Source: a virus (Duplodnaviria > Heunggongvirae > Uroviricota > Caudoviricetes). From it: a stretch of DNA of 17,922 nt. The notes below the pieces were generated by a model, which saw only the letters and a list, made by a program, of their open reading frames with translations, made no database searches and was not told the origin of the DNA. The stretch lies in the IMG/VR virus record IMGVR_UViG_2526164632_000023; one strand, written 5' to 3'. Shown here one piece after another: positions 1 to 16,422 of this stretch. Within the stretch, counting starts at the first letter, position 1. Every line of letters begins with the position of its first letter. Both the position numbers and the translations under genes were made by a program.

Positions 1-1227
1 GTGGCTGGCACAAACAAACTGAGTGATAAAAAATTAAGATCGCTTCTCGGCGTAAAGCGGGATTCAGTAATTACCATTGCGGATGGTGAAGGATTAAGCA
101 TCAAAGTATCCATGATGGGATGCATTAGTTGGGTTTTCTCTTATCGTCTTGGTGGGCGTGGGAGCAAGTTAGAGCGCATTGTTCTTGGGCGTTACCCTGA
201 CATGTCGTTGAAAATGGCTAGGGAGAAGAGGGAACTATGCCGAAAATGGTATGCGGACGGGCTGAATCCACGACTTGAATTAGAACTTAGCGCAGAAGAA
301 AACCTTAACCCCGTAACTGTCCATGATGCCCTTGAATATTGGCTAATTCATTACGCAAGAAAAAAACGTAGTGACGAGGAACTGGTGCGGGCGCAATTAC
401 GTAAGCATATTTATCCGCGTCTTGGCCACTATCCGTTATCCCGGTGTGAAACGCGTCACTGGGTGGCATGTTTTGATGAAATTAACCAGTTCAGGCCAAT
501 CACTGCCGGGCGAATGTTCCAGATTTGTAAACAGGCCTTAAGATTCTGCAAGGTTCGCCGTTATGCCTCATGTGATGCCCTGGCTTTTATGACAATCCAG
601 GATGTAGGGCAACCATCGGGGCAGCGTGATAGGGTGCTGTCAGATAGTGAGTTAGCTGATGTATGGCGGTGTACTTATAGCGATGAACAGCAATTTTATT
701 ATCTTCGTCTGCTTAAGTTGCTTGTGCTGTTTGGGGCGCGAACAATGGAAGTAAGATTATCACGGTGGAGTGAATGGGATTTTCAGTCATGGATTTGGAC
801 GGTTCCTAAAGAACACAGCAAAACTCGTGAAAAAATAGTTCGTCCAATTCCAGAGGGCATTCGCCCATGGATTGAGGATCTAAAAAAGGAAACGGGAAAA
901 ACAGGAATTGTACTGGGTGAAGAACGTTCCCGCCAGGCTGCTTCGCTTAAAGGGCGTAGGCTATACAAAGATTTTCATCATAATGAGCCATGGACGCTTC
1001 ACGATTTGCGCAGAACATTTTCTACAGGTTTAAATAATATGGGTATTGCGCCACATATTGTAGAGCTTTTACTTGGTCATGCATTGCCGGGGGTGATGGC
1101 TATTTATAACCGTAGTCTGTACTTACCTGAGAAAATGGATGCGTTGAATAAGTGGTATGGCCGATTAGAACTTCTGGCGGGTAATCATCAAAATGTGGTG
1201 CTGTTACCTGTATCGAATAGAGGTTAA
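1..1227 (+). CDS. int: Tyrosine recombinase / integrase, P4-type (satellite/PICI integrase); 5' end lies at the window edge and may be truncated by a few codons
   Basis: 408-aa ORF. N-terminus LSDKKLRSLL...DGEGLSIKV...WVFSYRLGG matches the P4-type integrase arm-binding domain; C-terminus HDLRRTFSTGLNNMGIAPHIVELLLGHALPGVMAIYNRSLY carries the R/H/R/Y catalytic residues. First gene of the island. Confidence 0.9.
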   Translation: MAGTNKLSDKKLRSLLGVKRDSVITIADGEGLSIKVSMMGCISWVFSYRLGGRGSKLERIVLGRYPDMSLKMAREKRELCRKWYADGLNPRLELELSAEENLNPVTVHDALEYWLIHYARKKRSDEELVRAQLRKHIYPRLGHYPLSRCETRHWVACFDEINQFRPITAGRMFQICKQALRFCKVRRYASCDALAFMTIQDVGQPSGQRDRVLSDSELADVWRCTYSDEQQFYYLRLLKLLVLFGARTMEVRLSRWSEWDFQSWIWTVPKEHSKTREKIVRPIPEGIRPWIEDLKKETGKTGIVLGEERSRQAASLKGRRLYKDFHHNEPWTLHDLRRTFSTGLNNMGIAPHIVELLLGHALPGVMAIYNRSLYLPEKMDALNKWYGRLELLAGNHQNVVLLPVSNRG

Positions 1228-1470: not shown

Positions 1471-2247
1471 ATGAATACTGATAGCGAGTCTGCAACTGCT
1501 TGGTTTGATACCAGAAATGCAAAATCGACCACATCACTGATGGGGAACAATATTACGGAATACTCCAGATTTCATCTTTTCAGATACAATTATAATGAGG
1601 AGACAGATGAAACTATACACGCGCCTTTATTCGGTCAAGACTCAGAAAACGGATGCTTTAGCTCTATTGGTAGGGCTTATGGATTGTGGCGCCTTTGGAG
1701 TGGGCTGGAAGAGCTACAAAATTTTGGAGAGTATTCCCTAAGTGGTTTTGAATTAACCCCGTGTCATCCAGAAACTGATAATCCTGCCGTACAACTTTTA
1801 ATGGTTGGTGAAGATAGTGATTATGATGAAGAAGACGATCAAATATTAAAGAATAATATTTCTATAAATGACTTGTGGATTACCGCTCATGATATAAGGC
1901 GACTTCTTGACTGTGGTGGCGATTATTTTACGCTAACAGATAATTTTGAATCTGTAGAACCTCACAAGATGAATGGCAATGAAATTGTGCACCATTCTGC
2001 TGAAAGACATGCAAGAAATCGAGAGCAAATTTTAATGGTTGCTATGCGTTTTAAAGAAGAGCAACAAAATACTTTTAATGAGACCTGCAGAAAAAACGAT
2101 GGAACGATTAACTATTCTGCTTGGGCTCGTGAGTTGATCGCCAGACCTGATTGGTTCATTAATAGTGAATTGCCAATAAAAACAGAAACAAAAATAGCAG
2201 CAATTTTAAGTAATGCTCATAAGAGGCCGAGTGAAAGATCGCAGTAA
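1471..2247 (+). CDS. Hypothetical protein, AT-rich orphan/accessory gene (no recognisable domain)
   Basis: 258-aa uninterrupted ORF with visibly lower GC than its neighbours, acidic stretch GEDSDYDEEDDQ, no motif I recognise. Sits between int and alpA. Confidence 0.6.
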   Translation: MNTDSESATAWFDTRNAKSTTSLMGNNITEYSRFHLFRYNYNEETDETIHAPLFGQDSENGCFSSIGRAYGLWRLWSGLEELQNFGEYSLSGFELTPCHPETDNPAVQLLMVGEDSDYDEEDDQILKNNISINDLWITAHDIRRLLDCGGDYFTLTDNFESVEPHKMNGNEIVHHSAERHARNREQILMVAMRFKEEQQNTFNETCRKNDGTINYSAWARELIARPDWFINSELPIKTETKIAAILSNAHKRPSERSQ

Positions 2248-2269
2248 GCCTTACTCATATACTCCTAAG

Positions 2270-2302
2270 CATACTGATATATTTATAAGCATTATCAGTA
2301 TG
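2270..2302. repeat. Perfect inverted repeat (10-bp arms CATACTGATA / TATCAGTATG, 13-nt spacer); terminator or operator candidate
   Basis: Read directly: catactgata at 2270-2279, reverse complement tatcagtatg at 2293-2302; 23 bp after the stop of the 1471-2247 ORF and upstream of alpA. Confidence 0.5.
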
Positions 2303-2384
2303 TTTCTATGATTACTACTGTGTTTTAATCCAGTATTAAAGATTGCAAAATAGCCTCCGCAAGCATAGATACAGTGGAGGCAAT

Positions 2385-2669
2385 ATGACAAAAACCACAT
2401 TCATTCCCCCAACTCCAGAACAACGCCGGGCGCTTCTTGAAGAATACGGTTTTGAATTTGATCGCCGTATCCGTGAAAAGGAATGCCAGGAAATCACCAG
2501 TCTGTCGCGCTCAACTCGCTTCAAAATGGAAAATGAAGGGCGTTTCCCGCCTCGTTGTCATTTCGGGCGCAATAGCTGTGCGTGGCTTCTCTCTGATGTG
2601 CTTTGGTGGGTTCGTAACCCACCTGCTGTAGATAAAGTCAATAATCCGTACGGTAAGAAAGCTGCATAA
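2385..2669 (+). CDS. alpA: AlpA-family phage/island transcriptional regulator (HTH, excisionase-like)
   Basis: ITSLSRSTRFKMENEGRFPPRCHFGRNSCAWLLSDVLWWV matches the AlpA/Xis-type HTH. Start chosen at ATG 2385, 6 nt after a GGAGG Shine-Dalgarno (2376-2380), rather than the ORF-track start at 2343. Confidence 0.75.
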   Translation: MTKTTFIPPTPEQRRALLEEYGFEFDRRIREKECQEITSLSRSTRFKMENEGRFPPRCHFGRNSCAWLLSDVLWWVRNPPAVDKVNNPYGKKAA

Positions 2670-2696
2670 GGGGGGAGTTATGACACATAAAACAAA

Positions 2697-2716
2697 GGCG
2701 ACCGGGGGCGGTCGCC
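2697..2716. terminator. GC-rich hairpin between convergent genes (candidate terminator for the minus-strand operon)
   Basis: ggcgaccg / cggtcgcc 8-bp stem with GGGG loop; on the minus strand it is followed by a T-rich tract. Lies between the alpA stop and the stop of the minus-strand ORF at 2781. Confidence 0.4.
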
Positions 2717-2780
2717 AATGGGAAAACACTAAACATAAGCCCGAACATCATAGTGATTTGCTGGCTGGTGGGCAATGTGA

Positions 2781-2969
2781 TCAGTCAGATTTGGTTCGTT
2801 CCAAGGTTTGCAACGAGAGCTTTTTCCTGTGCTCTTTAAGGAATTGCTCAAGGGCAAAAGCACATGGCGCGAATCTTTCTGATTCATGCTCTATCTTTCT
2901 GCGCCGTCTTTTCCGTGCCGGTGATAATGTTTTGGTCAATTCTTTATCGGTCATTGTGTTGTCCTGCAT
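2781..2969 (-). CDS. Small highly basic hypothetical protein (57-62 aa), downstream of the RHH gene on the minus strand
   Basis: ORF MQDNTMTDKELTKTLSPARKRRRRKIEHESERF...; an alternative start at the second Met (coordinate 2954) has an AGGA upstream. No recognisable family. Confidence 0.3.
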   Translation of the reverse strand: MQDNTMTDKELTKTLSPARKRRRRKIEHESERFAPCAFALEQFLKEHRKKLSLQTLERTKSD

Positions 2970-3011
2970 AGCAATGCGCCGTAGTTACTCACACCACGGC
3001 GCTGGTGATGG

Positions 3012-3190
3012 TTACTCCTGCTCTTTGGCCTTGCGACGCTGGCGGCGTTTGATCTCACCTTTAACGGCAGTAACTATAAATTGCGCCTTGCTTTCACCTT
3101 CATCTAAATTTTTTCTAAGTCTGCAACAACATCATGCGGGAATCTGGCATTTAACTGTTGCGACTTATTATTTGTTGAACCTGTTGCCAT
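3012..3190 (-). pseudogene. Ribbon-helix-helix (CopG/Arc/MetJ-like) DNA-binding protein gene, interrupted by an apparent +1/-1 frameshift in a homopolymer run
   Basis: Minus-strand ATG at 3190 gives MATGSTNNKSQQLNARFPHDVVADLEKI then a stop. The adjacent frame continues DEGESKAQFIVTAVKGEIKRRQRRKAKEQE to a TAA at 3012-3014. Adding one base in the A3/T6 run at 3106-3114 restores a 59-aa product with beta-strand, helix, G-x-S turn and second helix. Confidence 0.5.
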
Positions 3191-3301
3191 TACTGAATCC
3201 TCTCTAAGTTGGTGCGATTCAGTATACACAAAAAAAATTTCAGAGAAAGAGTTGAAGTGCGATTCACTTACTGATGGGTTAAAAACGAATGGTGCGATGC
3301 A
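3191..3301. promoter_or_regulatory. Divergent control region with operator-like repeats between the RHH gene and the rightward early operon
   Basis: Inverted repeat TACTGAATC (3191-3199) / GATTCAGTA (3216-3224); three direct copies of GTGCGAT(T/G)CA at 3212-3221, 3257-3266 and 3292-3301; A8 tract at 3229-3236. Confidence 0.45.
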
Positions 3302-3380
3302 CCAAACAACAACGCCCCGCAGTGGTGGCACACATGCAGGGCGTCTAACCACCAACGATAGCGAAAGTATCGAGGTAGCT

Positions 3381-3584
3381 ATGAGAAATTATACCAGACA
3401 CCCGCAAGGGCGGGACTCGTACAACCTGAATAAATACATCTGGCGTTTTATCGCCCTGAGCACGGCACAACCGCGCGTGATTACCATTGAGGCCACCAGC
3501 GAACAGGAAGCACGCCAGCAATCTCCTGATGACTGCGTGATGGTATTCGCCGCCCGTATTCGTCAGGGGGTGCGCCATGCATGA
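3381..3584 (+). CDS. Hypothetical small protein (67 aa), first gene of rightward early operon
   Basis: ATG 3381 preceded by GAGGTAG; the ORF-track extension back to 3252 uses a TTG inside the operator repeats with no RBS. No family recognised. Confidence 0.35.
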   Translation: MRNYTRHPQGRDSYNLNKYIWRFIALSTAQPRVITIEATSEQEARQQSPDDCVMVFAARIRQGVRHA

Positions 3585-3792
3585 TGACCGTTATTTTAAA
3601 TCAATGAGCCATGCAGAAAACGCACTGACTAACAGTGAATGTTTGAGGCAAATATTTCTTATCTGGCTTGATGGTTTAAGTGATGCGCCGGAAGATGAGC
3701 GTGAGTCTAATCTTGCTGGTGCGTTTATTTCATTACTCGATACGGTAATCGTCGAATTAAATAAAGCGATCGAAATTCACGATAAAAAATAA
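3577..3792 (+). CDS. Hypothetical small protein (71 aa)
   Basis: ORF overlaps the upstream stop (coupled arrangement); no family recognised. Confidence 0.4.
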   Translation: MHDDRYFKSMSHAENALTNSECLRQIFLIWLDGLSDAPEDERESNLAGAFISLLDTVIVELNKAIEIHDKK

Positions 3793-3808
3793 ACGCGGAA
3801 TAAAAACC

Positions 3809-4096
3809 ATGAAACAGAAAATTTCTGGCTTTACTGCCAGCGGCCCCGCTCGGCCTGAAATCCGCCCCGGCGATATTTTCCGGGATAACTATGGCGGCAC
3901 GGTAACGATAAAAGGCGTGGTAGAACGGCACATTACTTACCGCCGTGAAGGTTATGAATATGACTGCGTGATGCCTGTTTATCAGTTCCGGCGTGATTTC
4001 ACGCTGGTGGGCCATCGTAAAGCCGTAAATCAGAAACGTGCAGCAAGTCATATCCGCAAAATTCGTGAAATGCTGGTCGCAGGGGGTAAAAAATGA
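3809..4096 (+). CDS. Hypothetical protein (95 aa), translationally coupled to the replication ATPase
   Basis: Stop overlaps the start of the 4093 ORF (ATGA). Confidence 0.5.
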   Translation: MKQKISGFTASGPARPEIRPGDIFRDNYGGTVTIKGVVERHITYRREGYEYDCVMPVYQFRRDFTLVGHRKAVNQKRAASHIRKIREMLVAGGKK

Positions 4097-5499
4097 AACT
4101 GGCACCGAACGTAAAACTGTTACCGAAAGATAAACACACTGAGGCGGTTATTTTTGCGGGTGATAATGCTCACTCCTTTGCAGAACATTACATGATTGCA
4201 CAGGCCAAAAAAGCAGGCGATCCCATCCCTCCGGTTTACCTGGGCCGTTATCAGTTAAGCGAACTGGACAACCTGCAGATTGTTGATGAGGGGCGATACA
4301 GGGTAACGGTGATACGCGCCGGAAATATTGACGAAGCGCAGCTGTTAACCATAGCGACAAAACTGGCGATCGCCGGAGTCCAGGAAGCGCGGCTGCTTTC
4401 TGAAAACTTCGAATTACTGGAGAAATGGACCGACCAGCTTCCACGGCTACGGGAGACATGGGAGAGAGGGGAAAGCCTGATCATGAACGGAGGAAAACAA
4501 AAAATCACGCTACCGATTTCATGGGGTTCTGAGGGATTCGACGCGCAGCAAAGCTACGTAATTAAGGGGCTTATTCCGGCTGAATCATTATGCAGCACCT
4601 ACGGGGCCAGCGGTTCTTATAAATCGTTCCTGGCTATTTCCTGGTCGTGCCATGTTGCCACAGGTATGGCATGGGGAGGCCGCAGGGTAAGTAAGGGCGC
4701 GGTTATCTATATCGCTGGCGAAGGCAGTATGGGCGTAAAACGCCGCGTTAAGGCGTGGGAGATAACCCACGACAAGGTGGTTACGGATTTGTGCATCGTT
4801 AACGCGCCTGTCTTCCCTGCATCGCCTGACTATGTGGAGCAGGTTATCAGGACTGCCGGACTTGTTAAGAGCAGAACGGGCGAAAATGTGCGGCTGATTG
4901 TGATCGACACGCTGGCCCGTTGCTTTGGTGGGAATGATGAAAATGATTCCCGTGATATGGGCGCATTTATCCAGGGGTGTGACGCGATAAAGCAGGCCAC
5001 AGGGGCCACGGTACTGGTGGTTCACCATTCCGGCAAGGATGAAACAAAGGGGGCGCGAGGTTCCAGCGCATTCCGCGCTGCACTGGATGCAGAGTACCGA
5101 ATCAGCCGGGAAAATTCAGACGTTACAGCACTGGTGGCGGCGTGTACGAAGATGAAAGACGCAGAGGAGCCAAAAGAGAGCGCATACGACCTTAAAAGCG
5201 TGGAGGTGTTTACCGATACCGATGGCGAAGAGATTGTGTCCATGGTGGTGATTGACGTTCCCCGCGCCCCTGCTGAACTGGAGCGCATAGAGGAGGCCGG
5301 GAACAAGACGGAAAATCACACGGCTTTATGGGGTTGTATCCGGTCACGTATACAGCATGGTGATAAATGCACGATCCCGCTGCTACGTGATGACATGAAA
5401 AAGCTGGGATATGACACAAAACACCTTAAACGATGGTTAGCCAAACTGGAAAAAGACGGCGTGATTTGCGTCGATGGGGATGATGTTCACCCACTGTAA
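4093..5499 (+). CDS. Replication initiator / RecA-fold AAA ATPase (RepA-like helicase, AAA_25-type) of the island
   Basis: 468 aa. Walker A GASGSYKSFLAISW, Walker B LIVIDTLARCFGG, VLVVHHSGKDETKGARGSSA motif typical of RepA-like helicases; followed directly by an iteron array. Confidence 0.8.
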   Translation: MKLAPNVKLLPKDKHTEAVIFAGDNAHSFAEHYMIAQAKKAGDPIPPVYLGRYQLSELDNLQIVDEGRYRVTVIRAGNIDEAQLLTIATKLAIAGVQEARLLSENFELLEKWTDQLPRLRETWERGESLIMNGGKQKITLPISWGSEGFDAQQSYVIKGLIPAESLCSTYGASGSYKSFLAISWSCHVATGMAWGGRRVSKGAVIYIAGEGSMGVKRRVKAWEITHDKVVTDLCIVNAPVFPASPDYVEQVIRTAGLVKSRTGENVRLIVIDTLARCFGGNDENDSRDMGAFIQGCDAIKQATGATVLVVHHSGKDETKGARGSSAFRAALDAEYRISRENSDVTALVAACTKMKDAEEPKESAYDLKSVEVFTDTDGEEIVSMVVIDVPRAPAELERIEEAGNKTENHTALWGCIRSRIQHGDKCTIPLLRDDMKKLGYDTKHLKRWLAKLEKDGVICVDGDDVHPL

Positions 5500-7272: not shown

Positions 7273-7357
7273 GTAAGCGCATCATTTAAACCGTCTTTCG
7301 CCTCCCTTTCCTGTTTCCGATACTAATGTCCATTTTCGCAGTAAAAGGACATTTAAG

Positions 7358-8008
7358 ATGAATGCACGAAAAGCGGTACTGGCAGATAATCCAGAATTGA
7401 TCCTGCGTGTGCTACAGCTGAGATTTGACGAGTCACTGTCGTACCCGCGCATTTCTGCGCAGACTGGTGTCAGCAAAACCGCCATTTTTTCTCTGGTGAG
7501 GCGATTTCACCAGGTATTCACTGACTGGCCTCTTTCCGGTGAATATTCCTGCGGGCAACTGGCCCGGGCTCTTTTCCCGGGGCGATACCCTTCAGCCCCG
7601 ACCGTGACTCAGCCTGTGAAAGCAGAGAAACCCCGCCGGAACCGATTTTCACCGGAGTTTAAATGGAGACTGGTTCAGCAAACTCTTTTACCCGGTGCCT
7701 GTGTCGCACAAATAGCTCGAGAGAATGGAATTAACGATAACCTGCTCTTTAACTGGCGGCATCTCTGGCGTAACGGTGGCCTGCAACCGCCCGGCGAACA
7801 TGAAACATCGCTACTTCCCGTGACGTTAACTCCGGAGCCGGATAATAAAATCCCGGCACCAGTGCAGATACCTGAACAGATAAATACACTGCCAGACAGT
7901 CTGTGCTGCGAGCTGGTTCTGCCGGCCGGAACTCTCAGGCTGAAAGGTGAACTGACACCGGCGTTATTACAGACACTTATCCGCGAAATGAAAGGGAGCA
8001 GCCACTGA
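7358..8008 (+). CDS. tnpA: IS66-family accessory protein TnpA (orfA)
   Basis: 216 aa with HTH-like N-terminus; position and sequence typical of IS66 orfA; stop overlaps the tnpB start. Confidence 0.8.
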   Translation: MNARKAVLADNPELILRVLQLRFDESLSYPRISAQTGVSKTAIFSLVRRFHQVFTDWPLSGEYSCGQLARALFPGRYPSAPTVTQPVKAEKPRRNRFSPEFKWRLVQQTLLPGACVAQIARENGINDNLLFNWRHLWRNGGLQPPGEHETSLLPVTLTPEPDNKIPAPVQIPEQINTLPDSLCCELVLPAGTLRLKGELTPALLQTLIREMKGSSH

Positions 8009-8355
8009 TGATATCTCTCCCTGCCGGTTCGCGTATCTGGCTGGTTGCCGGTATCACCGATATGCGAAATGGCTTTAACGGCCTGGCCTCAAAAGTTCAG
8101 AACGTCCTGAAGGATGACCCGTTCTCCGGGCATCTGTTCATCTTCCGCGGACGCCGGGGTGACCAGATAAAAGTGCTGTGGGCTGACAGTGACGGACTGT
8201 GCCTCTTCACCAAACGCCTGGAGCGGGGCCGCTTCGTCTGGCCGGTCACCCGCGATGGAAAGGTTCACCTTACTCCGGCTCAGTTGTCCATGCTTCTCGA
8301 AGGCATCGACTGGAAGCACCCGAAACGAACGGAACGCGCTGGCATCCGCATATAA
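8008..8355 (+). CDS. tnpB: IS66-family accessory protein TnpB (orfB)
   Basis: 115 aa, MISLPAGSRIWLVAGITDMRNGFNGLA...LWADSDGLCLFTKRLERGRF is the conserved IS66 orfB signature. Confidence 0.9.
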   Translation: MISLPAGSRIWLVAGITDMRNGFNGLASKVQNVLKDDPFSGHLFIFRGRRGDQIKVLWADSDGLCLFTKRLERGRFVWPVTRDGKVHLTPAQLSMLLEGIDWKHPKRTERAGIRI

Positions 8356-8374
8356 CCCGTTGTAAAGTGAGGAT

Positions 8375-9945
8375 ATGGACACCTCACTTGCTCATGAGAA
8401 TGCCCGCCTGCGGGCACTGTTGCAGACGCAACAGGACACCATCCGCCAGATGGCGAAATACAACCGCCTGCTCTCACAGCGGGTGGCGGCTTATGCTTCC
8501 GAAATCAACCGGCTGAAGGCGCTGGTTGCGAAACTGCAGCGCATGCAGTTCGGTAAAAGCTCAGAAAAACTTCGCGCTAAAACCGAACGGCAGATACAGG
8601 AAGCACAGGAGCGAATCAGCGCACTTCAGGAAGAAATGGCGGAAACGCTGGGTGAGCAATATGACCCGGTACTGCCATCCGCCCTGCGCCAGTCTTCAGC
8701 CCGTAAACCGTTACCGGCCTCACTTCCCCGTGAAACCCGGGTCATCCGGCCGGAAGAGGAATGCTGCCCGGCCTGTGGTGGTGACCTCAGTCCTCTGGGG
8801 TGTGATGTGTCAGAGCAACTGGAGCTTATCAGCAGCGCCTTTAAGGTTATCGAAACACAACGTCCGAAACTGGCCTGTTGTCGGTGCGACCATATCGTGC
8901 AGGCAACAGTACCTTCAAAACCCATTGCACGCAGTTATGCCGGAGCGGGGCTTCTGGCCCATGTTGTTACCGGGAAATATGCAGACCATCTGCCGTTATA
9001 CCGCCAGTCAGAAATATACCGTCGCCAGGGCGTGGAGCTGAGCCGCGCCACGCTGGGGCGCTGGACAGGTGCCGTTGCTGAACTGCTGGAGCCGCTGTAT
9101 GACGTCCTGCGCCAGTATGTGCTGATGCCCGGTAAAGTCCATGCTGATGATATCCCCGTCCCGGTCCAGGAGCCGGGCAGCGGTAAAACCCGGACCGCCC
9201 GGCTGTGGGTCTACGTCCGTGATGACCGTAACGCCGGTTCGGAAATGCCCCCGGCGGTCTGGTTCGCGTACTCACCGGACCGGAAAGGTATCCATCCACA
9301 AAATCATCTGGCCGGTTACAGCGGTGTGCTTCAGGCCGATGCTTACGGTGGTTACCGGGTGTTATACGAATCCGGCAGAATAACGGAAGCCGCGTGTATG
9401 GCTCATGCCCGGAGAAAAATCCACGATGTGCATGCAAGAGTGCCCACCGACATCACCACGGAAGCCCTGCAGCGTATCGGTGAACTGTATGCCATAGAGG
9501 CAGAATCCGGGGATGTACAGCAGAACAGCGTCTGGCGGCAAGAAAAGCCAGAGCTGCGCCACTGATGCAGTCACTGTATGACTGGATACAGACTCAGATG
9601 AAAACACTGTCGCGTCACTCGGATACGGCAAAAGCGTTCGCATACCTGCTGAAACAGTGGGATGGCCTGAACGTGTACTGCAGTAATGGCTGGGTGGAAA
9701 TCGACAACAACATCGCAGAGAACGCCTTACGGGGAGTGGCCGTAGGCCGGAAAAACTGGCTGTTCGCGGGTTCCGACAGCGGTGGCGAACATGCGGCGGT
9801 GTTGTACTCGCTGATCGGCACATGCCGTCTGAACAATGTGGAACCAGAAAAATGGCTGCGTTACGTCATTGAGCATATCCAGGATTGGCCGGCAAACCGG
9901 GTACGCGATCTGTTGCCCTGGAAAGTTGATCTGACCTCTCAGTAA
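8375..9945 (+). pseudogene. tnpC: IS66-family transposase TnpC, split by an apparent 1-nt frameshift near 9500-9510
   Basis: ORF 8375-9565 has the leucine-zipper N-terminus, CPACGG...CCRC zinc-finger motif and DDE core; ORF 9565-9945 in another frame carries the conserved C-terminus [26 protein letters not shown]. The second frame is open back to 9484, so the shift lies in 9484-9565. Confidence 0.8.
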
Positions 9946-9975
9946 ATATCAATACGGTTCTGGCGAGCCGCTTAC

Positions 9976-10177: not shown

Positions 10178-11323
10178 ATGAAGAAATTAATCGAACTCCG
10201 CCAGCAAAAAACCGCCCTGAAAAACCAGATGCGATCCCTGCTGGAAAAAGCCGACAATGAAAACCGCAGCCTGAACGATGACGAAGGCAAACAGTTTGAT
10301 GAACTGCGTGCAAAAGCCGATTCCCTCGACACAGAAATTTCCCGCCTCGAGTCTGTGGCTGATGAAGAACGTAACCAGCCTGGTGTTCCCGTCGAAGATA
10401 AAATCACCAAAAATGAGCTACGCTCTTACATTCTGACCGGGGAAACCCGCAACCTGTCCGGCAGTGTTCCGGCTGATGGTGGTTATACGGTTATCCCGGA
10501 ACTGAACAGAGAAATTATGCGTCAGCTTTCTGATGAGTCGGTGATGCGTAAAATCTGTACTGTTAAAACCATTCACAGTAATGAATTTAAGCAACTGGTT
10601 TCTGCCGGGGGTGCGGTCGTGGGACACGGCGAAGAAGGTGCGGCACGTAACCAGACGGCAACCCCAAAACTGAATGAAGTCAGTATCCGCCTGTATCCGA
10701 TCTACGCTTACCCGAAAACCACTCAGGAAATTATCGATTTTTCCGAAGTCGATATTATGGGCTGGTTATCTTCTGAAATTGGCGACACTTTCGTTGATAC
10801 CGAAGAAACGGATCTGGTTTCCGGTGATGGCGAGAAAAAAGCCAAAGGTTTCCTGACTTTCCCGCGCACTACGGATAATGACAAAACCCGTCCTTTCGGT
10901 ACGCTCCAGACGAAAAAAGTGACTGGCAGTCTCAGCGCCGATATGCTGATTGACCTGAAATTTACGCTGCGCAATAAGTACCGCAAAAAAGCTGTATGGG
11001 TGATGAACTCAAATACAGCCGCCTCCGCACAAAAACTGAAAAATGCCACTGGTGATTACATCTGGCGCGATCGTTTACAGGCTGGTGATCCTGATTCTCT
11101 GCTGGGGCTTCCGGTTGAATATCTGGAATTTATGCCGGACGGTGTGATTGCAGTCGGTGACTTTAAGCGCGGTTATTTCATCGTTGACCATAAAACCGGT
11201 ACGCGTACCCGTCCGGATTTCAGCGAGCCTGGATTCATTAACATCTATACCCAGAAATATCTGGGCGGTGGTGTGGTGGATTCGAACGCCATCAAGATTC
11301 TGGAAATTCAGGCTGGCAAGTAA
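10178..11323 (+). CDS. Major capsid protein, HK97 fold, with N-terminal coiled-coil delta/scaffold domain
   Basis: 381 aa; coiled-coil-like N-terminus MKKLIELRQQKTALKNQMRSLLEKA...; GGYTVIPE and LLGLPVEYLEFMP...GDFKRGYFIVDHKTG motifs typical of HK97-family capsid proteins. Confidence 0.85.
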   Translation: MKKLIELRQQKTALKNQMRSLLEKADNENRSLNDDEGKQFDELRAKADSLDTEISRLESVADEERNQPGVPVEDKITKNELRSYILTGETRNLSGSVPADGGYTVIPELNREIMRQLSDESVMRKICTVKTIHSNEFKQLVSAGGAVVGHGEEGAARNQTATPKLNEVSIRLYPIYAYPKTTQEIIDFSEVDIMGWLSSEIGDTFVDTEETDLVSGDGEKKAKGFLTFPRTTDNDKTRPFGTLQTKKVTGSLSADMLIDLKFTLRNKYRKKAVWVMNSNTAASAQKLKNATGDYIWRDRLQAGDPDSLLGLPVEYLEFMPDGVIAVGDFKRGYFIVDHKTGTRTRPDFSEPGFINIYTQKYLGGGVVDSNAIKILEIQAGK

Positions 11324-11934: not shown

Positions 11935-13149
11935 ATGTGGTGGCCTTTTAGTCGTAAAAAAAGCGATCTGCGTAACCTGTCCATTGATGATTTTCTGGCG
12001 TTGTCTGGTGTACCAAATACCGGATCCGGAGAATATGTTTCTGCCGGGACGGCTGAATCATTGCCTGCTGTGATGAACGCGGTTTCTGTCATCGCTGAGG
12101 CGGTGGCCACGATGCCGTGTTACCTGTATCTGGTACGCAATGATAAGGGCAGAGAGGCGCGGGAATGGCTGGACAGTCACCCGGTAGATATTCTGCTGAA
12201 TGAGCAGCCTAATTCGTGCCTGACACCTTACCAGTTTAAACGCACAATGATGCGTCACTGCCTGCTGAACGGTAACGCCTATGCGGTTATTGAGTGGGGG
12301 CGGGACGGGCAGCCAAAATCACTTCATCCTTATGCGCCGGGGTGTGTTGTACCGGAACGCACAGGCACACACAAATACCGCTATACCATCACCGAACCCT
12401 GTACAGGAACGGTGCGCACGTATTTACAGGAAGAAGTTCTGCATCTCCGCTATGCCTCGGATGATGGCTTTCTGGGGCGTTCCCCCGTCACGATTTGCCG
12501 TGAGGCGCTGGGGCTTGGCCTTGCTCAACAGCGCCACGGAGCCAGCATTATGAAAGATGGCATGATGGCGGCAGGGATTATCACGTCAGGTGAATGGCTG
12601 GACGGCGTGAAAGGTAAACAGGCATTAGACGCACTGGAACGCTACAAGGGGGCGAAAAATGCCGGAAAAACGCCAATCCTTGAAGGGGGCATGGATTACA
12701 GGCAGCTGGGGATGAGTAACCAGGATGCGGAATGGCTGGCCTCCCGTCGCTTCTCCATTGAAGACATCGCCAGGATGTTCAACGTGTCGCCGATTTTTCT
12801 TCAGGAATACAGCAACAGCACCTACAGCAATTTCAGTGAGGCGAGCCGCGCATTTCTGACCATGACAATGCGCCCGTGGCTGGCGAACTTCGAACAGCAA
12901 ATCAAGGCCGCTTTGCTGGTGACTTCTCCCGTACCTGGTACCCGTTATCTGGTTGAGTTTGATTCAGCCGATTTACTGCGCGCCACACCCACCGAACGTT
13001 ATGCCACGTATGAGAAAGGGATTAAGAGCGGGATCATGAATCCGAACGAAGCTCGCGAACGCGAGGGTATGCCGCCGCGTGAAGGTGGTGATGAGTTCAG
13101 CCAGGCATGGAAACAGACTGTGAAAATTAAAGGGAGAAAAGATGAGTGA
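11935..13149 (+). CDS. Portal protein, HK97 family
   Basis: About 404 aa from ATG 11935, immediately after the protease stop; sequence typical of HK97-type portal proteins. Confidence 0.85.
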   Translation: MWWPFSRKKSDLRNLSIDDFLALSGVPNTGSGEYVSAGTAESLPAVMNAVSVIAEAVATMPCYLYLVRNDKGREAREWLDSHPVDILLNEQPNSCLTPYQFKRTMMRHCLLNGNAYAVIEWGRDGQPKSLHPYAPGCVVPERTGTHKYRYTITEPCTGTVRTYLQEEVLHLRYASDDGFLGRSPVTICREALGLGLAQQRHGASIMKDGMMAAGIITSGEWLDGVKGKQALDALERYKGAKNAGKTPILEGGMDYRQLGMSNQDAEWLASRRFSIEDIARMFNVSPIFLQEYSNSTYSNFSEASRAFLTMTMRPWLANFEQQIKAALLVTSPVPGTRYLVEFDSADLLRATPTERYATYEKGIKSGIMNPNEAREREGMPPREGGDEFSQAWKQTVKIKGRKDE

Positions 13150-13444
13150 AGCCAGAATTACACCTGATGAAGTCAGGGCACATCTTCGACTTGATGATGA
13201 TTTATCCGGTGAAGGCGAACTTCTGAAAATGTATACCGATGCGGCGCTGGAAGCCTGCCAGAAGCATATCGGGAAACGTTTTGAAGACGGGCTGGAATTT
13301 ACCCCGGCAATGCGTGTTGGTTGCCTGATGTACATCGCTTTCCTGTACGAGAACAGGGAAGCAGTTTCACCAGTGGAGCAGTCTGAACTGCCTATGGCTA
13401 TTTCTGCGCTCTGGTCGGTTTATCGTGATGTGGGGGTGTACTGA
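13142..13444 (+). CDS. Head-tail connector / gp6-like adaptor protein
   Basis: 100 aa, ITPDEVRAHLRLDDD...GELLKMYTDAALEACQKHIGKRF pattern typical of gp6-like head-tail connector proteins; start overlaps the portal stop. Confidence 0.65.
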   Translation: MSEARITPDEVRAHLRLDDDLSGEGELLKMYTDAALEACQKHIGKRFEDGLEFTPAMRVGCLMYIAFLYENREAVSPVEQSELPMAISALWSVYRDVGVY

Positions 13445-13884
13445 TGCCGTGGCAACCATTAAGGCGATGCACTGAGCCGGGCTGTAATAAGCGCGTGAAG
13501 TCCGGCAAGTGTGAAGAGCACAGACGGGCTGTATGGCGTGCAGAGGATGCCAGACGGGGACACCGCCGCGCGCGCGGGTATTCCCGACAGTGGGACAAAT
13601 ACCGCGCCCTGTACCTGAGCAAAAACCCGTTATGCGTGCGTTGTCTGGCTAAGGGGATTTATACGCCAGCTCTTGTGGTGGATCACATCATCCCCATCAA
13701 TGGCGGCGGTGATGTTCTCTTCTGGCCTGAGTGGAACCACCAGGCATTGTGCCAGACGTGCCACAACCGTAAGACGACACGGGAAGATCCAGCCACGAAA
13801 GCGAACCGTAAGGCGGGCATGTATCGCGAGCAGGAAGAACGGGCAGCACACCGTAACGACTGGATGTATGGCGATGATGACTGA
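13444..13884 (+). CDS. HNH endonuclease (packaging-associated)
   Basis: Cys-rich; CVRCLAKGIYTPALVVDHIIPINGGGD...WNHQALCQTCHNRKT contains an HNH-type D-H...N...H arrangement; sits beside terS/terL as in HNH-dependent cos packaging modules. Confidence 0.8.
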   Translation: MPWQPLRRCTEPGCNKRVKSGKCEEHRRAVWRAEDARRGHRRARGYSRQWDKYRALYLSKNPLCVRCLAKGIYTPALVVDHIIPINGGGDVLFWPEWNHQALCQTCHNRKTTREDPATKANRKAGMYREQEERAAHRNDWMYGDDD

Positions 13885-14053
13885 ACAGGAGCAAACCAGG
13901 CTGATACGTGGACTGATAAGGCAGCGTGACTTATGGAAGACACAGGAGACAGGGCACAAAGCCAACAGGACAGGGCGCACAAAACGCACCACAGCGAAGC
14001 GATTAACCGACCGTGACCGCGAGGTCATGGAATGTTTTCGCAATCGCTGGTGA
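13868..14053 (+). CDS. Small Arg/Thr-rich hypothetical protein (about 61 aa)
   Basis: In-frame ATGs at 13868/13874/13877 overlapping the HNH stop; MAMMTEQEQTRLIRGLIRQRDLWKTQETGHKANRTGRTKRTTAKRLTDRDREVMECFRNRW. Could be spurious. Confidence 0.25.
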   Translation: MAMMTEQEQTRLIRGLIRQRDLWKTQETGHKANRTGRTKRTTAKRLTDRDREVMECFRNRW

Positions 14054-14172
14054 GGCCGTCAGAGGGGGTGGGGGTGGTTTTCAGGACGAAACCGTCCCTG
14101 CCGGACACCGACCGCCTCCTCAAATTTTTGTGCACGGGAATTTTTTTGAAAATAATTGGGCGAAAAAAGAAC
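14054..14172. other. Candidate cos/packaging-initiation region between HNH and terS
   Basis: 119-bp non-coding gap with G-rich block (gagggggtgggggtgg), hairpin ggacg-aaac-cgtcc and T-rich tracts, positioned where cohesive-end sites lie in HNH-dependent HK97-like modules. Confidence 0.3.
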
Positions 14173-14529
14173 ATGGCAAGACCACCAAAAGCCCCCGCTT
14201 ACCTGGATGAAATCGCGGTCAGGCAGTGGAAGGAAAAATCGCGCCAGCTTTCCGGACGGGAAGACCTTACCCCCGCCGACTGGAGCAATCTGGAGCTGTA
14301 TTGTGTTAACTACTCCATATACCGCAAAGCCGTCGAAGACCTTGCCACGCGCGGGTTCAGCATTGTTAACAGTCAGGGCAGCGAGAGCAGAAACCCCGCC
14401 CTGAGCGCAAAGGCTGACGCTGAAAGAATAATGATCAAAATGGCTTCTTTGCTGGGTTTTGACCCGGTAAGTCGCCGCAGAAATCCACCGGAAACAGAGG
14501 AAGAGGACGAGCTTGACCGCCTGGCATGA
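14173..14529 (+). CDS. Terminase small subunit, P27 family
   Basis: Start at ATG 14173 (MARPPKAP...). LTPADWSNLELYCVNYSIYRKAVEDLATRGF...SRNPALSAKADAERIMIKMASLLGFDPVSRRR matches the P27-type TerS pattern. Confidence 0.75.
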   Translation: MARPPKAPAYLDEIAVRQWKEKSRQLSGREDLTPADWSNLELYCVNYSIYRKAVEDLATRGFSIVNSQGSESRNPALSAKADAERIMIKMASLLGFDPVSRRRNPPETEEEDELDRLA

Positions 14530-16174
14530 GTACGCAGAAGGCGTAAAAAACGGCAAAATTACGGCCTGTAAACGACTGAAACAGGCCGTTAAACGGTATT
14601 TTTCTGACCTTGAAAACCCCCTTTACACGTTCGATCCGGAGGTCGTGGAGCGGTTTATTGCCTTTTCCAGGGTGTGTCCGCACGTAAAAGGCGCAATGCG
14701 CGGTAGCCCCATTGAGCTGGAGCCGTGGCAGCAGTTCGCCTTTGCGTGCATCCTGGGCTTTAAGGTTAAGGCCACCGGACGGCGCAAATACACCAGCGCA
14801 TTCATTGAAGTGCCGCGAAAAAATGCCAAATCCACGGTCGCCGCTATCCTGGCTAACTGGTTTCTGGTTATGGAAAACGGGCAGCAGGATATTTACACCG
14901 CCGCCGTGAGTCGTGATCAGGCGCGGATCGTGTTTGATGATGCGCGTCAGATGTGCCTTTTATCCCGACCGTTACGAAAGCGGGTAAATATTCAGGCACA
15001 CAAGGTGATACACCCGAAAACCAACAGCCTGTTAAAGCCACTGGCAGCAAAAGCGGCAACCATTGAAGGTACAAACCCGAGTCTTGCCATTGTGGATGAA
15101 TATCACCTGCACCCTGACAACGGGGTTTATTCCGCGCTTGAACTGGGAATGGGGGCGCGTCCGGAGGGGCTGTTATTTGCCATCACCACATCGGGGAGCA
15201 ACGTTGTTTCAGCCTGTAAACAACACTATGACTATTGCTGCCAGATACTGGATGGTGAAGAGGTGAACGAATCCATGTTCGTGCTGATTTACGAGCTGGA
15301 TGATGAAAGCGAGGTTGACGATCCGGCGATGTGGATAAAGGCGAATCCCAATATCGATGTTTCCGTCGATCGTGAAAAACTGGCCTCAACCATCCAGAAA
15401 GCGCGGGGTATTCCGTCGCAGTGGGTGGAAATGCTCACCAAGCGATTCAATATCTGGTGTCAGGGGGCTACGCCGTGGATGGGTAACGGTGCATGGGCGG
15501 AGTGCGCCGGAACGTTCGCGGAGGCGGATTTATACGGTCAGGAGTGCTACGCGGGGCTGGACTTATCATCAACCAGCGATATTTCCAGCGTGTGCTATGC
15601 CTTTCCGGTCGGTAAAAAGATTATGCTGGTTTCCCGTCACTATCTGCCGGAATTTCAGCTACAGAACCCCGCCAATAAAAACCGCGCCATCTATCGCCAG
15701 TGGGTAAAGGCGGGCTGGATACGCACAACACCGGGTGACTGCATTGATTATGACCGTATCCGTGATGACATCATGGCGGATGCAGAGAATTTCAATATCA
15801 GGCTGGTGGGCTTCGATACATGGAACGCCACGCACCTGAGGACGCAGCTACAGGGGGCAGGATTTGAGGTGGAGCCGTTCCCGCAAACATACCTTCGTTT
15901 CAGTCCGGCGGCGAAATCGTTCGAAGTTTTTGTTAACCGGAAGGTGATTGTGCATCGTGGCGATCCGGTGCTGGCCTGGTCAATGAGTAATGTTGTGATG
16001 CAGAGTGACGCGAACGCCAATATCAAGCCGAACAAGAAAAAATCATCCAACAAGATAGACCCGAGCGTTGCGGCTCTGATGGCTTTTGGCACATTCCAGG
16101 CAGAGCATGAGGAATTTGCATTTGATATGAGCGACAGCCACAAAGAGCGGCTTGCGGCGTTTGATGGGGTATGA
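14513..16174 (+). CDS. Terminase large subunit
   Basis: 553 aa; N-terminal ATPase and C-terminal nuclease regions typical of TerL; overlaps the terS end by 17 nt. Confidence 0.9.
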   Translation: MTAWHEYAEGVKNGKITACKRLKQAVKRYFSDLENPLYTFDPEVVERFIAFSRVCPHVKGAMRGSPIELEPWQQFAFACILGFKVKATGRRKYTSAFIEVPRKNAKSTVAAILANWFLVMENGQQDIYTAAVSRDQARIVFDDARQMCLLSRPLRKRVNIQAHKVIHPKTNSLLKPLAAKAATIEGTNPSLAIVDEYHLHPDNGVYSALELGMGARPEGLLFAITTSGSNVVSACKQHYDYCCQILDGEEVNESMFVLIYELDDESEVDDPAMWIKANPNIDVSVDREKLASTIQKARGIPSQWVEMLTKRFNIWCQGATPWMGNGAWAECAGTFAEADLYGQECYAGLDLSSTSDISSVCYAFPVGKKIMLVSRHYLPEFQLQNPANKNRAIYRQWVKAGWIRTTPGDCIDYDRIRDDIMADAENFNIRLVGFDTWNATHLRTQLQGAGFEVEPFPQTYLRFSPAAKSFEVFVNRKVIVHRGDPVLAWSMSNVVMQSDANANIKPNKKKSSNKIDPSVAALMAFGTFQAEHEEFAFDMSDSHKERLAAFDGV

Positions 16175-16422
16175 CGAGAATGAGCGAAACCGAACTACTA
16201 AAAATAATCCGCCGCGTTACCGGAATCAGCCAGCAGCATGACGAACAGGCCACGCAGCCGGACAGCGTGACCGCCGAAAATTATGTGCGTGTTGTAGCGG
16301 AAGTGATGCGCCGTAATGGTATCCAGCTTAATGATGTGGATATGCGCAACATACGGATCCGCGTTCTGGAAATGCTGGCATACCGTCGCCGCGTGGAGAT
16401 GTATCGGGAGAAGGAAAAATAA
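16171..16422 (+). CDS. Hypothetical protein (83 aa) downstream of terL
   Basis: Start overlaps the terL stop (ATGA); no family recognised. Confidence 0.45.
   Translation: MTRMSETELLKIIRRVTGISQQHDEQATQPDSVTAENYVRVVAEVMRRNGIQLNDVDMRNIRIRVLEMLAYRRRVEMYREKEK

Follow-up and report, generated by a model that had tools for sequence, protein, structure and literature searches.

A probable cos site in the non-coding gap upstream of terS in an Escherichia coli capsid-forming PICI

The 119-bp non-coding gap directly upstream of the small terminase gene (terS) in an Escherichia coli capsid-forming PICI (cf-PICI) is very probably the cos site of this island. The window, by which we mean the whole 17,922-nt stretch of DNA analyzed (IMG/VR record IMGVR_UViG_2526164632_000023), is an E. 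coli cf-PICI with its own HNH endonuclease, TerS, and TerL. A sequence-only reading of this DNA had named the gap as a candidate cos, and matches between a profile of cf-PICI gaps and the mapped cos sites of phi644-2/phiE125 and SfI/SfV/ST64B support that proposal. Our assignment rests on homology to these mapped sites and on the contig ends of virion-derived DNA from a relative. We infer the exact nick positions, the 3' polarity of the overhang, the pairing of proteins with sequence blocks, and the role of a G-rich block (G-block).

Gene content and order in the window are those of a cf-PICI. Gene calls from an open reading frame (ORF) listing, combined with Pfam and PHROG matches, gave the order capsid, protease, portal, connector, HNH, a 61-amino-acid (aa) ORF, the gap, terS (P27 family), and terL (Table 1). 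The RefSeq annotation of a 99.9% identical copy of the island lists integrase, regulators, primase, capsid, protease, portal, connector, HNH, small ORF, terS, and terL, and contains no tail or lysis genes. The cf-PICI layout of an integrase and replication module, head genes, and hnh-terS-terL within ~10–18 kb is thus present; the island measures ~14.2 kb without an insertion sequence (IS) and ~16.9 kb with it, and its left att site lies outside the window. The HNH–terS stretch was found in 534 of 5,426 complete E. coli genomes and was chromosomal every time. Published Proteobacteria cf-PICIs have their morphogenetic genes first, followed by hnh-terS-terL, and their packaged DNA is reported to have cohesive cos ends through which it forms concatemers. 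The suggestion of the sequence-only reading that the island packages by its own cos and its own HNH-TerS-TerL machinery is supported by this gene set and by the reported cohesive ends of cf-PICIs.

Table 1. Positions of genes and of predicted cos elements in the window
Feature	Coordinates	Strand	Basis or remarks
Integrase	1–1227		ORF listing and Pfam
Major capsid protein	10178–11323		ORF listing and Pfam
Portal	to 13149		ORF listing and Pfam
gp6-like connector	13142–13444		ORF listing and Pfam
HNH endonuclease, accessory nuclease of terminase	13444–13884	+	PF01844, E=8.8e-10; phrog_144, E=7e-45
61-aa ORF, function not assigned	13868–14053	+	phrog_3173, E=5.6e-28; RefSeq hypothetical protein
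Non-coding gap, probable cos region as a whole	14054–14172	none	Direct reading; indels not multiples of 3; profile matches to mapped cos sites
G-rich block GAGGGGGTGGGGGTGG, proposed cosQ-like recognition/termination element	14062–14077		Near-invariant; putative function
31-nt spacer	14078–14108		5' end TTTTCAGGAC conserved, middle variable
Predicted 10-nt cohesive end 5'-CGACCGCCTC-3', 3' overhang by analogy	14109–14118		Uncertainty ~2–3 nt
A/T-tract block CTCAAATTTTTGTGCACGGGAATTTTTTTGAAAATAA, predicted left end of packaged DNA and cosB-like TerS site	14119–14155		Near-invariant
terS, small terminase, P27 family	14173–14529	+	PF05119, E=1.6e-23; phrog_83, E=3e-38
terL, large terminase (ATPase and nuclease)	14513–16174	+	PF03354, E=4e-26; PF20441, E=1.8e-52

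Outside the packaging region, we observed a 2.7-kb IS66-family element (window positions 7274–9975) with three ORFs and a PF03050 transposase. Relative to an IS-free copy of the island, it sits between the replication module and the capsid gene, with a 9-bp alignment overlap that suggests target duplication. This insertion may cut the head and packaging operon off from its promoter, or may affect expression or packaged size, and an island that carries it may no longer be mobilized. Downstream of terL, the window has only an 83-aa ORF (16171–16422, phrog_1561), at the place where a Klebsiella relative (LR881103.1, positions 2036–4333) has a 2.3-kb ORF annotated as "tail length tape measure protein."

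We consider the gap to be non-coding because its indels among relatives are 1, 8, 9, and 13 nt long and because RefSeq puts the terS start at the position equivalent to the ATG at 14173. These observations bear out the earlier description of a 119-bp non-coding interval; we note that an in-frame ATG farther upstream, at 14032, would give a 165-aa ORF in the window. That description also placed the interval between the HNH gene and terS, which is correct on the terS side, but the gene directly upstream is the 61-aa ORF and not HNH. The small ORF overlaps the 3' end of the HNH gene and has a C-terminus that relatives conserve (..RDRE.MECFRNRW). In Pasteurella cf-PICIs, SfV, and ST64B, HNH runs directly up to the gap with no such ORF, while Acinetobacter phage AbIPP1 has a different small ORF at this place.

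The gap (14054–14172) reads GGCCGTCAGAGGGGGTGGGGGTGGTTTTCAGGACGAAACCGTCCCTGCCGGACACCGACCGCCTCCTCAAATTTTTGTGCACGGGAATTTTTTTGAAAATAATTGGGCGAAAAAAGAAC. Its homopolymer tracts include T5 (14125–14129), T7 (14141–14147), and A6 (14163–14168), and its second conserved block (~14109–14155) follows the pattern CC..CTCAAATTTTT..GCACGG..ATTTTTTTGAAAATAA. Within the A/T-tract block, two direct repeats, AATTTTTGTG and AATTTTTTTG, lie 16 nt apart (14123–14148) and flank GCACGGG; they are candidates for repeated contact points of a TerS ring. A small hairpin with arms GGAC (14084–14087) and GTCC (14094–14097) lies inside the spacer. The G-rich block, T tracts, and hairpin noted in the sequence-only reading are all present, but the hairpin is irrelevant to the assignment: it is weak, is not conserved, and falls where the gap varies, a single stretch.

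Secondary structure could in principle give the gap a different role, with its G-rich and C-rich arms forming a hairpin followed by a T run, as in an intrinsic terminator or a structured RNA between the head and terminase genes. The minimum free energy fold of the DNA does pair GAGGGGGTGG with CCGCCTCCTC, followed by AAATTTTT, and a weak terminator-like match occurs at 14056–14071. However, the fold had a z-score of only −1.35, with 21 of 200 shuffles folding equally well, and the RNAalifold consensus of 26 sequences reached −4.3 kcal/mol, and its covariation term was 0.07. The T run begins three bases past the stem, and the hairpin first noticed sits in the variable spacer. We regard a terminator or structured RNA as extremely unlikely. 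Both the small hairpin and the G/C-arm stem were rejected as functional structures on the basis of fold z-score and zero covariation.

Conservation across relatives was concentrated in two blocks. We collected loci from IMG/VR, mostly prophage predictions from isolate genomes, through the TerS protein rather than a DNA motif, which yielded 48 distinct gap sequences. The G-block and the A/T-tract block were almost unchanged in these sequences and across Enterobacteriaceae. The first invariant block in the alignment was GGGGTGGGGG..GTTTTCAGGAC and the second was CC.CC.CCTCAAATTTTT..GCAC.G..ATTTTTTTGAAAATAA, with ~20 nt of variable sequence between them. In a larger set of 121 distinct sequences, column identity in 15-nt windows was 0.93–0.95 in the blocks versus 0.6–0.85 in HNH and the small ORF; this set was partly ascertained by a T7-GAAAATAA motif, and the protein-based set of 48 is the fairer test. 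Nearby coding DNA drops to ~70% identity between subgroups. We interpret this pattern as purifying selection that holds the blocks invariant while adjacent coding DNA drifts. The same layout is retained in Pasteurella cf-PICIs, in which TerS is just 60% identical and both blocks are recognizable. The ends of IMG/VR contigs were also considered as a proxy for DNA termini and discarded as uninformative; one metagenome contig, for example, starts 132 nt before terS and includes the whole gap.

The gap resembles cos sites that have been mapped experimentally in other phages. A profile built from cf-PICI gaps alone and searched with nhmmer matched phi644-2 with 20.8 bits (E=2.9e-5 in a 0.2-Mb search space), and the alignment spans the junction of the physical genome ends. 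The phi644-2 record ends in ...CCGGGAC CGCCCGCTTC and begins with GTCAAATTTTCACGCCCGCG, and the phi644-2 paper describes 10-base 3' extensions, CGCCCGCTTC, common to phiE125. Searched against the whole ST64B genome (40 kb, both strands), the profile gave one significant match (E=0.0033), GGACTGCCCGCCCCCTCGAATTTTTATACCCG, which falls in the HNH–terS gap; the ST64B record is circular with an arbitrary origin and was used for its sequence alone. In the corresponding segment of SfI, run-off sequencing of the termini of virion DNA revealed a 10-nt gap, 5'-TGCCCGCCCC-3', relative to the prophage, and the SfV site is said to be identical.

These mapped sites have features in common with the window and also differ from it. 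As in the window, the cos of phiE125 and phi644-2 lies between HNH and a P27-family terS. The phi644-2 overhang CGCCCGCTTC is identical to the window's CGACCGCCTC at 7 of 10 positions, with GAC directly before it and a G-block 32 nt upstream, matching the architecture of the window, and the left ends are alike (GTCAAATTTTCACGCCCGCG in phi644-2, CTCAAATTTTTGTGCACGGG in the window). In contrast, the A/T-tract block nearest terS differs (AAAAATGAAATTTAA versus ATTTTTTTGAAAATAA), the phage is a full-size siphovirus, and its TerS is ~34% identical. SfI, SfV, and ST64B share with the window the order HNH-gap-terS(P27)-terL and the succession of a G-block, a 31-nt spacer, the overhang, and then (C/A)TC(G)AATTTTT. 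The SfV proteins are 36% (TerS, E=7e-21) and 37% (HNH, E=1e-17) identical to those of the window. However, past the first T tract these phages and the cf-PICI block have unrelated sequences, HNH and cos are not separated by a small ORF, and the genomes are phage-sized with their own tail genes.

All of these comparisons predict the same register for the overhang. The phi644-2 and SfI/ST64B alignments, together with an independent MAFFT alignment, place it opposite 14109–14118, and counting 31 nt from the G-block leads to the same positions. The left genome end would therefore start at 14119 (CTCAAATTTTT...). This predicted register may be off by 2–3 nt, as short GC-rich strings were aligned without gaps to obtain it.

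The split of these blocks by genome ends also bears on whether they could be a promoter, operator, or translation-initiation region for terS-terL rather than a cut site. Conserved non-coding sequence beside a gene start is often regulatory, and the A/T-rich block contains TTGAAA 20–30 nt upstream of the terS ATG. However, the physical ends of phi644-2 divide the very same blocks, and the G-block lies 95 nt from the ATG; in cluster E mycobacteriophages it occurs at the genome end, with terS over 1 kb away. A scan found no sigma-70-like site on the + strand, and a lone match on the − strand was no better than shuffles. We consider a purely regulatory function very unlikely, although a regulatory role could coexist with cos. 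Promoter and terminator signals were set aside as explanations on the grounds that the scan performed no better than on shuffled sequence.

Similarity to an experimentally mapped cos was found for phi644-2 and ST64B/SfI but not for HK97. The HK97 cos is like the window in lying between HNH and terS, with a G-run 32 nt upstream of the overhang; the overhang itself (CGCCGCCAAA) is GC-rich and preceded by GAC, and a T7 tract follows ~24 nt downstream. However, HK97 TerS falls outside PF05119 and has no BLASTP similarity to the window TerS. DNA similarity at the HK97 cos was not significant (pairwise z-scores of −0.5 to 4.2), and nhmmer against the whole HK97 genome gave no match at cos. Since the DNA similarity is not significant and the TerS proteins are unrelated by both BLASTP and Pfam, we rejected HK97 as a sequence template and use it as support for layout and mechanism only, not for homology. 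A lambda-type cos, with a 12-nt 5' overhang, Nu1-type TerS, cosQ-cosN-cosB, and an IHF site, does not fit the window because the window TerS belongs to the P27 family, it has an HNH partner, and the homologous mapped sites have 3' overhangs. The arrangement in the window fits an HNH-dependent 3'-overhang cos, with the predicted site in a non-coding gap downstream of HNH and immediately upstream of terS, and with intact genes for HNH, TerS, and TerL (ATPase and nuclease) at the flanks. Other satellites with cos-dependent packaging include P4, cos SaPIs (SaPIbov5), and Rpp-type E. coli PICIs. These copy or redirect the terminase and cos of a helper, whereas the cf-PICI cos serves the island's own HNH-TerS-TerL and capsid.

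Virion-derived DNA from a relative is broken where the cut is predicted. Escherichia phage vB_KppS-Ant (LR881103.1) is a linear record of 16,548 bp whose first base lies 22 nt before terS and whose last lies in the G-block region. It derives from phage-preparation DNA obtained on K. pneumoniae DSM 30104, sequenced from a Nextera XT library, and was recognized as an induced prophage. KpCIDSM30104, a cf-PICI for which cohesive ends of the packaged DNA have been reported, comes from the same strain. From its gene content and origin strain, vB_KppS-Ant appears to be KpCIDSM30104. A scan of species-representative genomes gave one match, K. pneumoniae ATCC 13883, which we take to be the same type strain as DSM 30104. 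The last and first 3,000 nt of vB_KppS-Ant are 100% identical to the ATCC 13883 chromosome, where they lie 69 nt apart. These 69 nt, absent from the vB_KppS-Ant assembly, consist of 21 nt to the left of the predicted site, the 10-nt overhang, and 38 nt to its right, and the same 69 nt are present in six other relatives. The ends of vB_KppS-Ant thus bracket the predicted cut (21 nt before and 38 nt after the overhang), although we note that they are contig ends and not mapped termini. Tagmentation (Nextera) libraries lose the extreme ends of linear molecules, and the missing 69 nt are therefore the pattern expected of physical ends at the predicted cos. The vB_KppS-Ant paper describes this entity as a filamentous ssDNA phage.

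Other records from phage and metagenome preparations contain the same gap. In Klebsiella phage P12620-1 (PQ569648.1, 106.5 kb), a second virion-derived record, the last 15.9 kb (90644–106503) are a complete cf-PICI. The first bases of this segment are the terS start codon and its last lie 11 nt short of the small ORF's end, such that it too is broken in the same gap. The record appears to be a chimeric assembly, with the junction between the cf-PICI and unrelated phage sequence falling precisely on that codon. It is conceivable that the assemblies of vB_KppS-Ant and P12620-1 simply dropped out here, where the sequence is rich in G and in homopolymers. OR845787.1 and the metagenome contig mentioned above (L064) both span the gap intact, as expected for integrated or annealed copies. 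The first, 1.6 kb long and of low coverage, came from phage prepared on E. coli O157:H7 ATCC 43895; it carries HNH-gap-terS with a gap 82% identical to that of the window. We take ATCC 43895 to be strain EDL933, in which case the contig would be EcCIEDL933 DNA.

The same data speak to headful (pac) packaging, or a cos located elsewhere, under which the gap would be a conserved leftover of a phage ancestor. In its favor, certain phages with a P27-family TerS have no assigned packaging mode. However, vB_KppS-Ant virion DNA assembled into a linear molecule, not a circularly permuted one, whose unique ends fall in the gap, and cf-PICI DNA is reported to have cohesive ends. An HNH gene beside the terminase genes is the signature of cos-type HK97-like packaging, and purifying selection holds the blocks invariant next to coding DNA at ~70% identity. 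We therefore judge pac packaging or a distant cos to be highly unlikely, and we retain the gap as the probable cos. The sequence-only reading had named circularly permuted ends as the observation that would speak against it, and in this relative the assembly is linear with a defined break rather than a circle. The coverage step that it proposed to look for in virion DNA has a counterpart in vB_KppS-Ant, a linear contig that lacks the 69 nt around the predicted cut; this is consistent with ends at the gap, although contig breaks are indirect evidence.

A G-block at a fixed distance from the cut recurs in phages well beyond the cf-PICIs. In HK97, D3, phi644-2, Murphy, SfV, and ST64B, a G-block lies 31–32 nt upstream of the terminal 9–10 nt, which are preceded by GAC in most of the six. 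The spacer of the window is 31 nt long, and the window, KpCIDSM30104, and AbIPP1 fit at 30–31 nt, for an overall range of 30–32 nt. This rule was derived from our comparison and is not a published definition; the overhang of D3 and cluster E phages is presumably 9 nt, and we take the last 9 nt of cluster E genome ends (e.g., Murphy) to be the overhang, following PhagesDB. When phage records were searched by BLAST with the gap sequence, 152 cluster E mycobacteriophages matched 14058–14079 (GTCAGAGGGGGTGGGGGTGGTT) exactly over all 22 nt, the match ending 38 nt from the right genome end. Like the window, Murphy has a 31-nt spacer that ends in GAC before the terminal CGCTTGTCA, its G-block lies just past the last HNH gene, and its TerS belongs to PF05119. 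In contrast, cluster E phages have Actinobacteria hosts, an unrelated left-end sequence, and a terS 1 kb or more from the end.

Such identity over 22 nt of non-coding DNA between an E. coli satellite and actinophages was unexpected and points to a strongly constrained cos element. A literature search for a published G-block motif returned only irrelevant papers. It is a plausible but tentative idea, somewhat short of an even chance, that the G-block is a previously unremarked and near-universal cos element of HNH-assisted terminases in phages of Proteobacteria and Actinobacteria, set three helical turns upstream of the 3' overhang, with only the downstream TerS block having diverged. The G-block may be read by HNH or by the TerL nuclease domain. 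If this is true, the division between a G-block and a TerS block would explain how cf-PICIs keep a phage-type cutting core and yet package only themselves, and cos ends could be predicted by a sequence rule in uncharacterized HK97-like phages and satellites, of which there are thousands. We regard the broad conservation of the G-block at a set distance from the cut as the most interesting by-product of this analysis.

The mechanism that we propose for the island follows the HK97 model. In HK97, TerS recognizes a 15-bp A-tract site (+15 to +29) and arrests the motor, so that TerL, stimulated by the HNH protein gp74, cuts to leave a 10-nt 3' overhang. In the excised and replicated island, the P27-family TerS would bind the A/T-tract block (~14119–14155), which lies just upstream of its own gene and contains the two AATTTTT(G/T)TG repeats 16 nt apart. 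TerS would then position TerL together with the HNH endonuclease, and these two proteins would make staggered nicks at ~14108/14109 and 14118/14119, leaving the GC-rich 10-nt 3' overhang CGACCGCCTC. With 14119 as its starting point, packaging would run rightwards, taking in terS and terL first, then the att junction and int, and after these the replication and head genes as far as HNH. It would fill the island's own small capsids and would stop at the next cos. There the motor would meet the G-block first, three helical turns upstream of the cut, and the G-block probably halts or positions it.

Much of the framework for this finding has been published, including cf-PICIs themselves, their packaging by their own HNH-TerS-TerL, and their cohesive ends, and from HK97-like systems a cos would be expected between hnh and terS. 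We found no mapped cf-PICI cos in two cf-PICI preprints or in related papers, so the near-base-level placement and the three-block anatomy described here are a modest addition. Knowing the position of cos also helps to set right those database entries in which a packaged satellite is listed as a "phage." Its three blocks can be addressed separately, which makes the G-block, the overhang, and the A/T-tract block targets for tests of packaging specificity and for loading cos plasmids as cargo into cf-PICI particles. Movement of cf-PICIs between species relies on capsids of their own that take up no DNA but theirs, and cos is thus the cis element that defines what is transferred.
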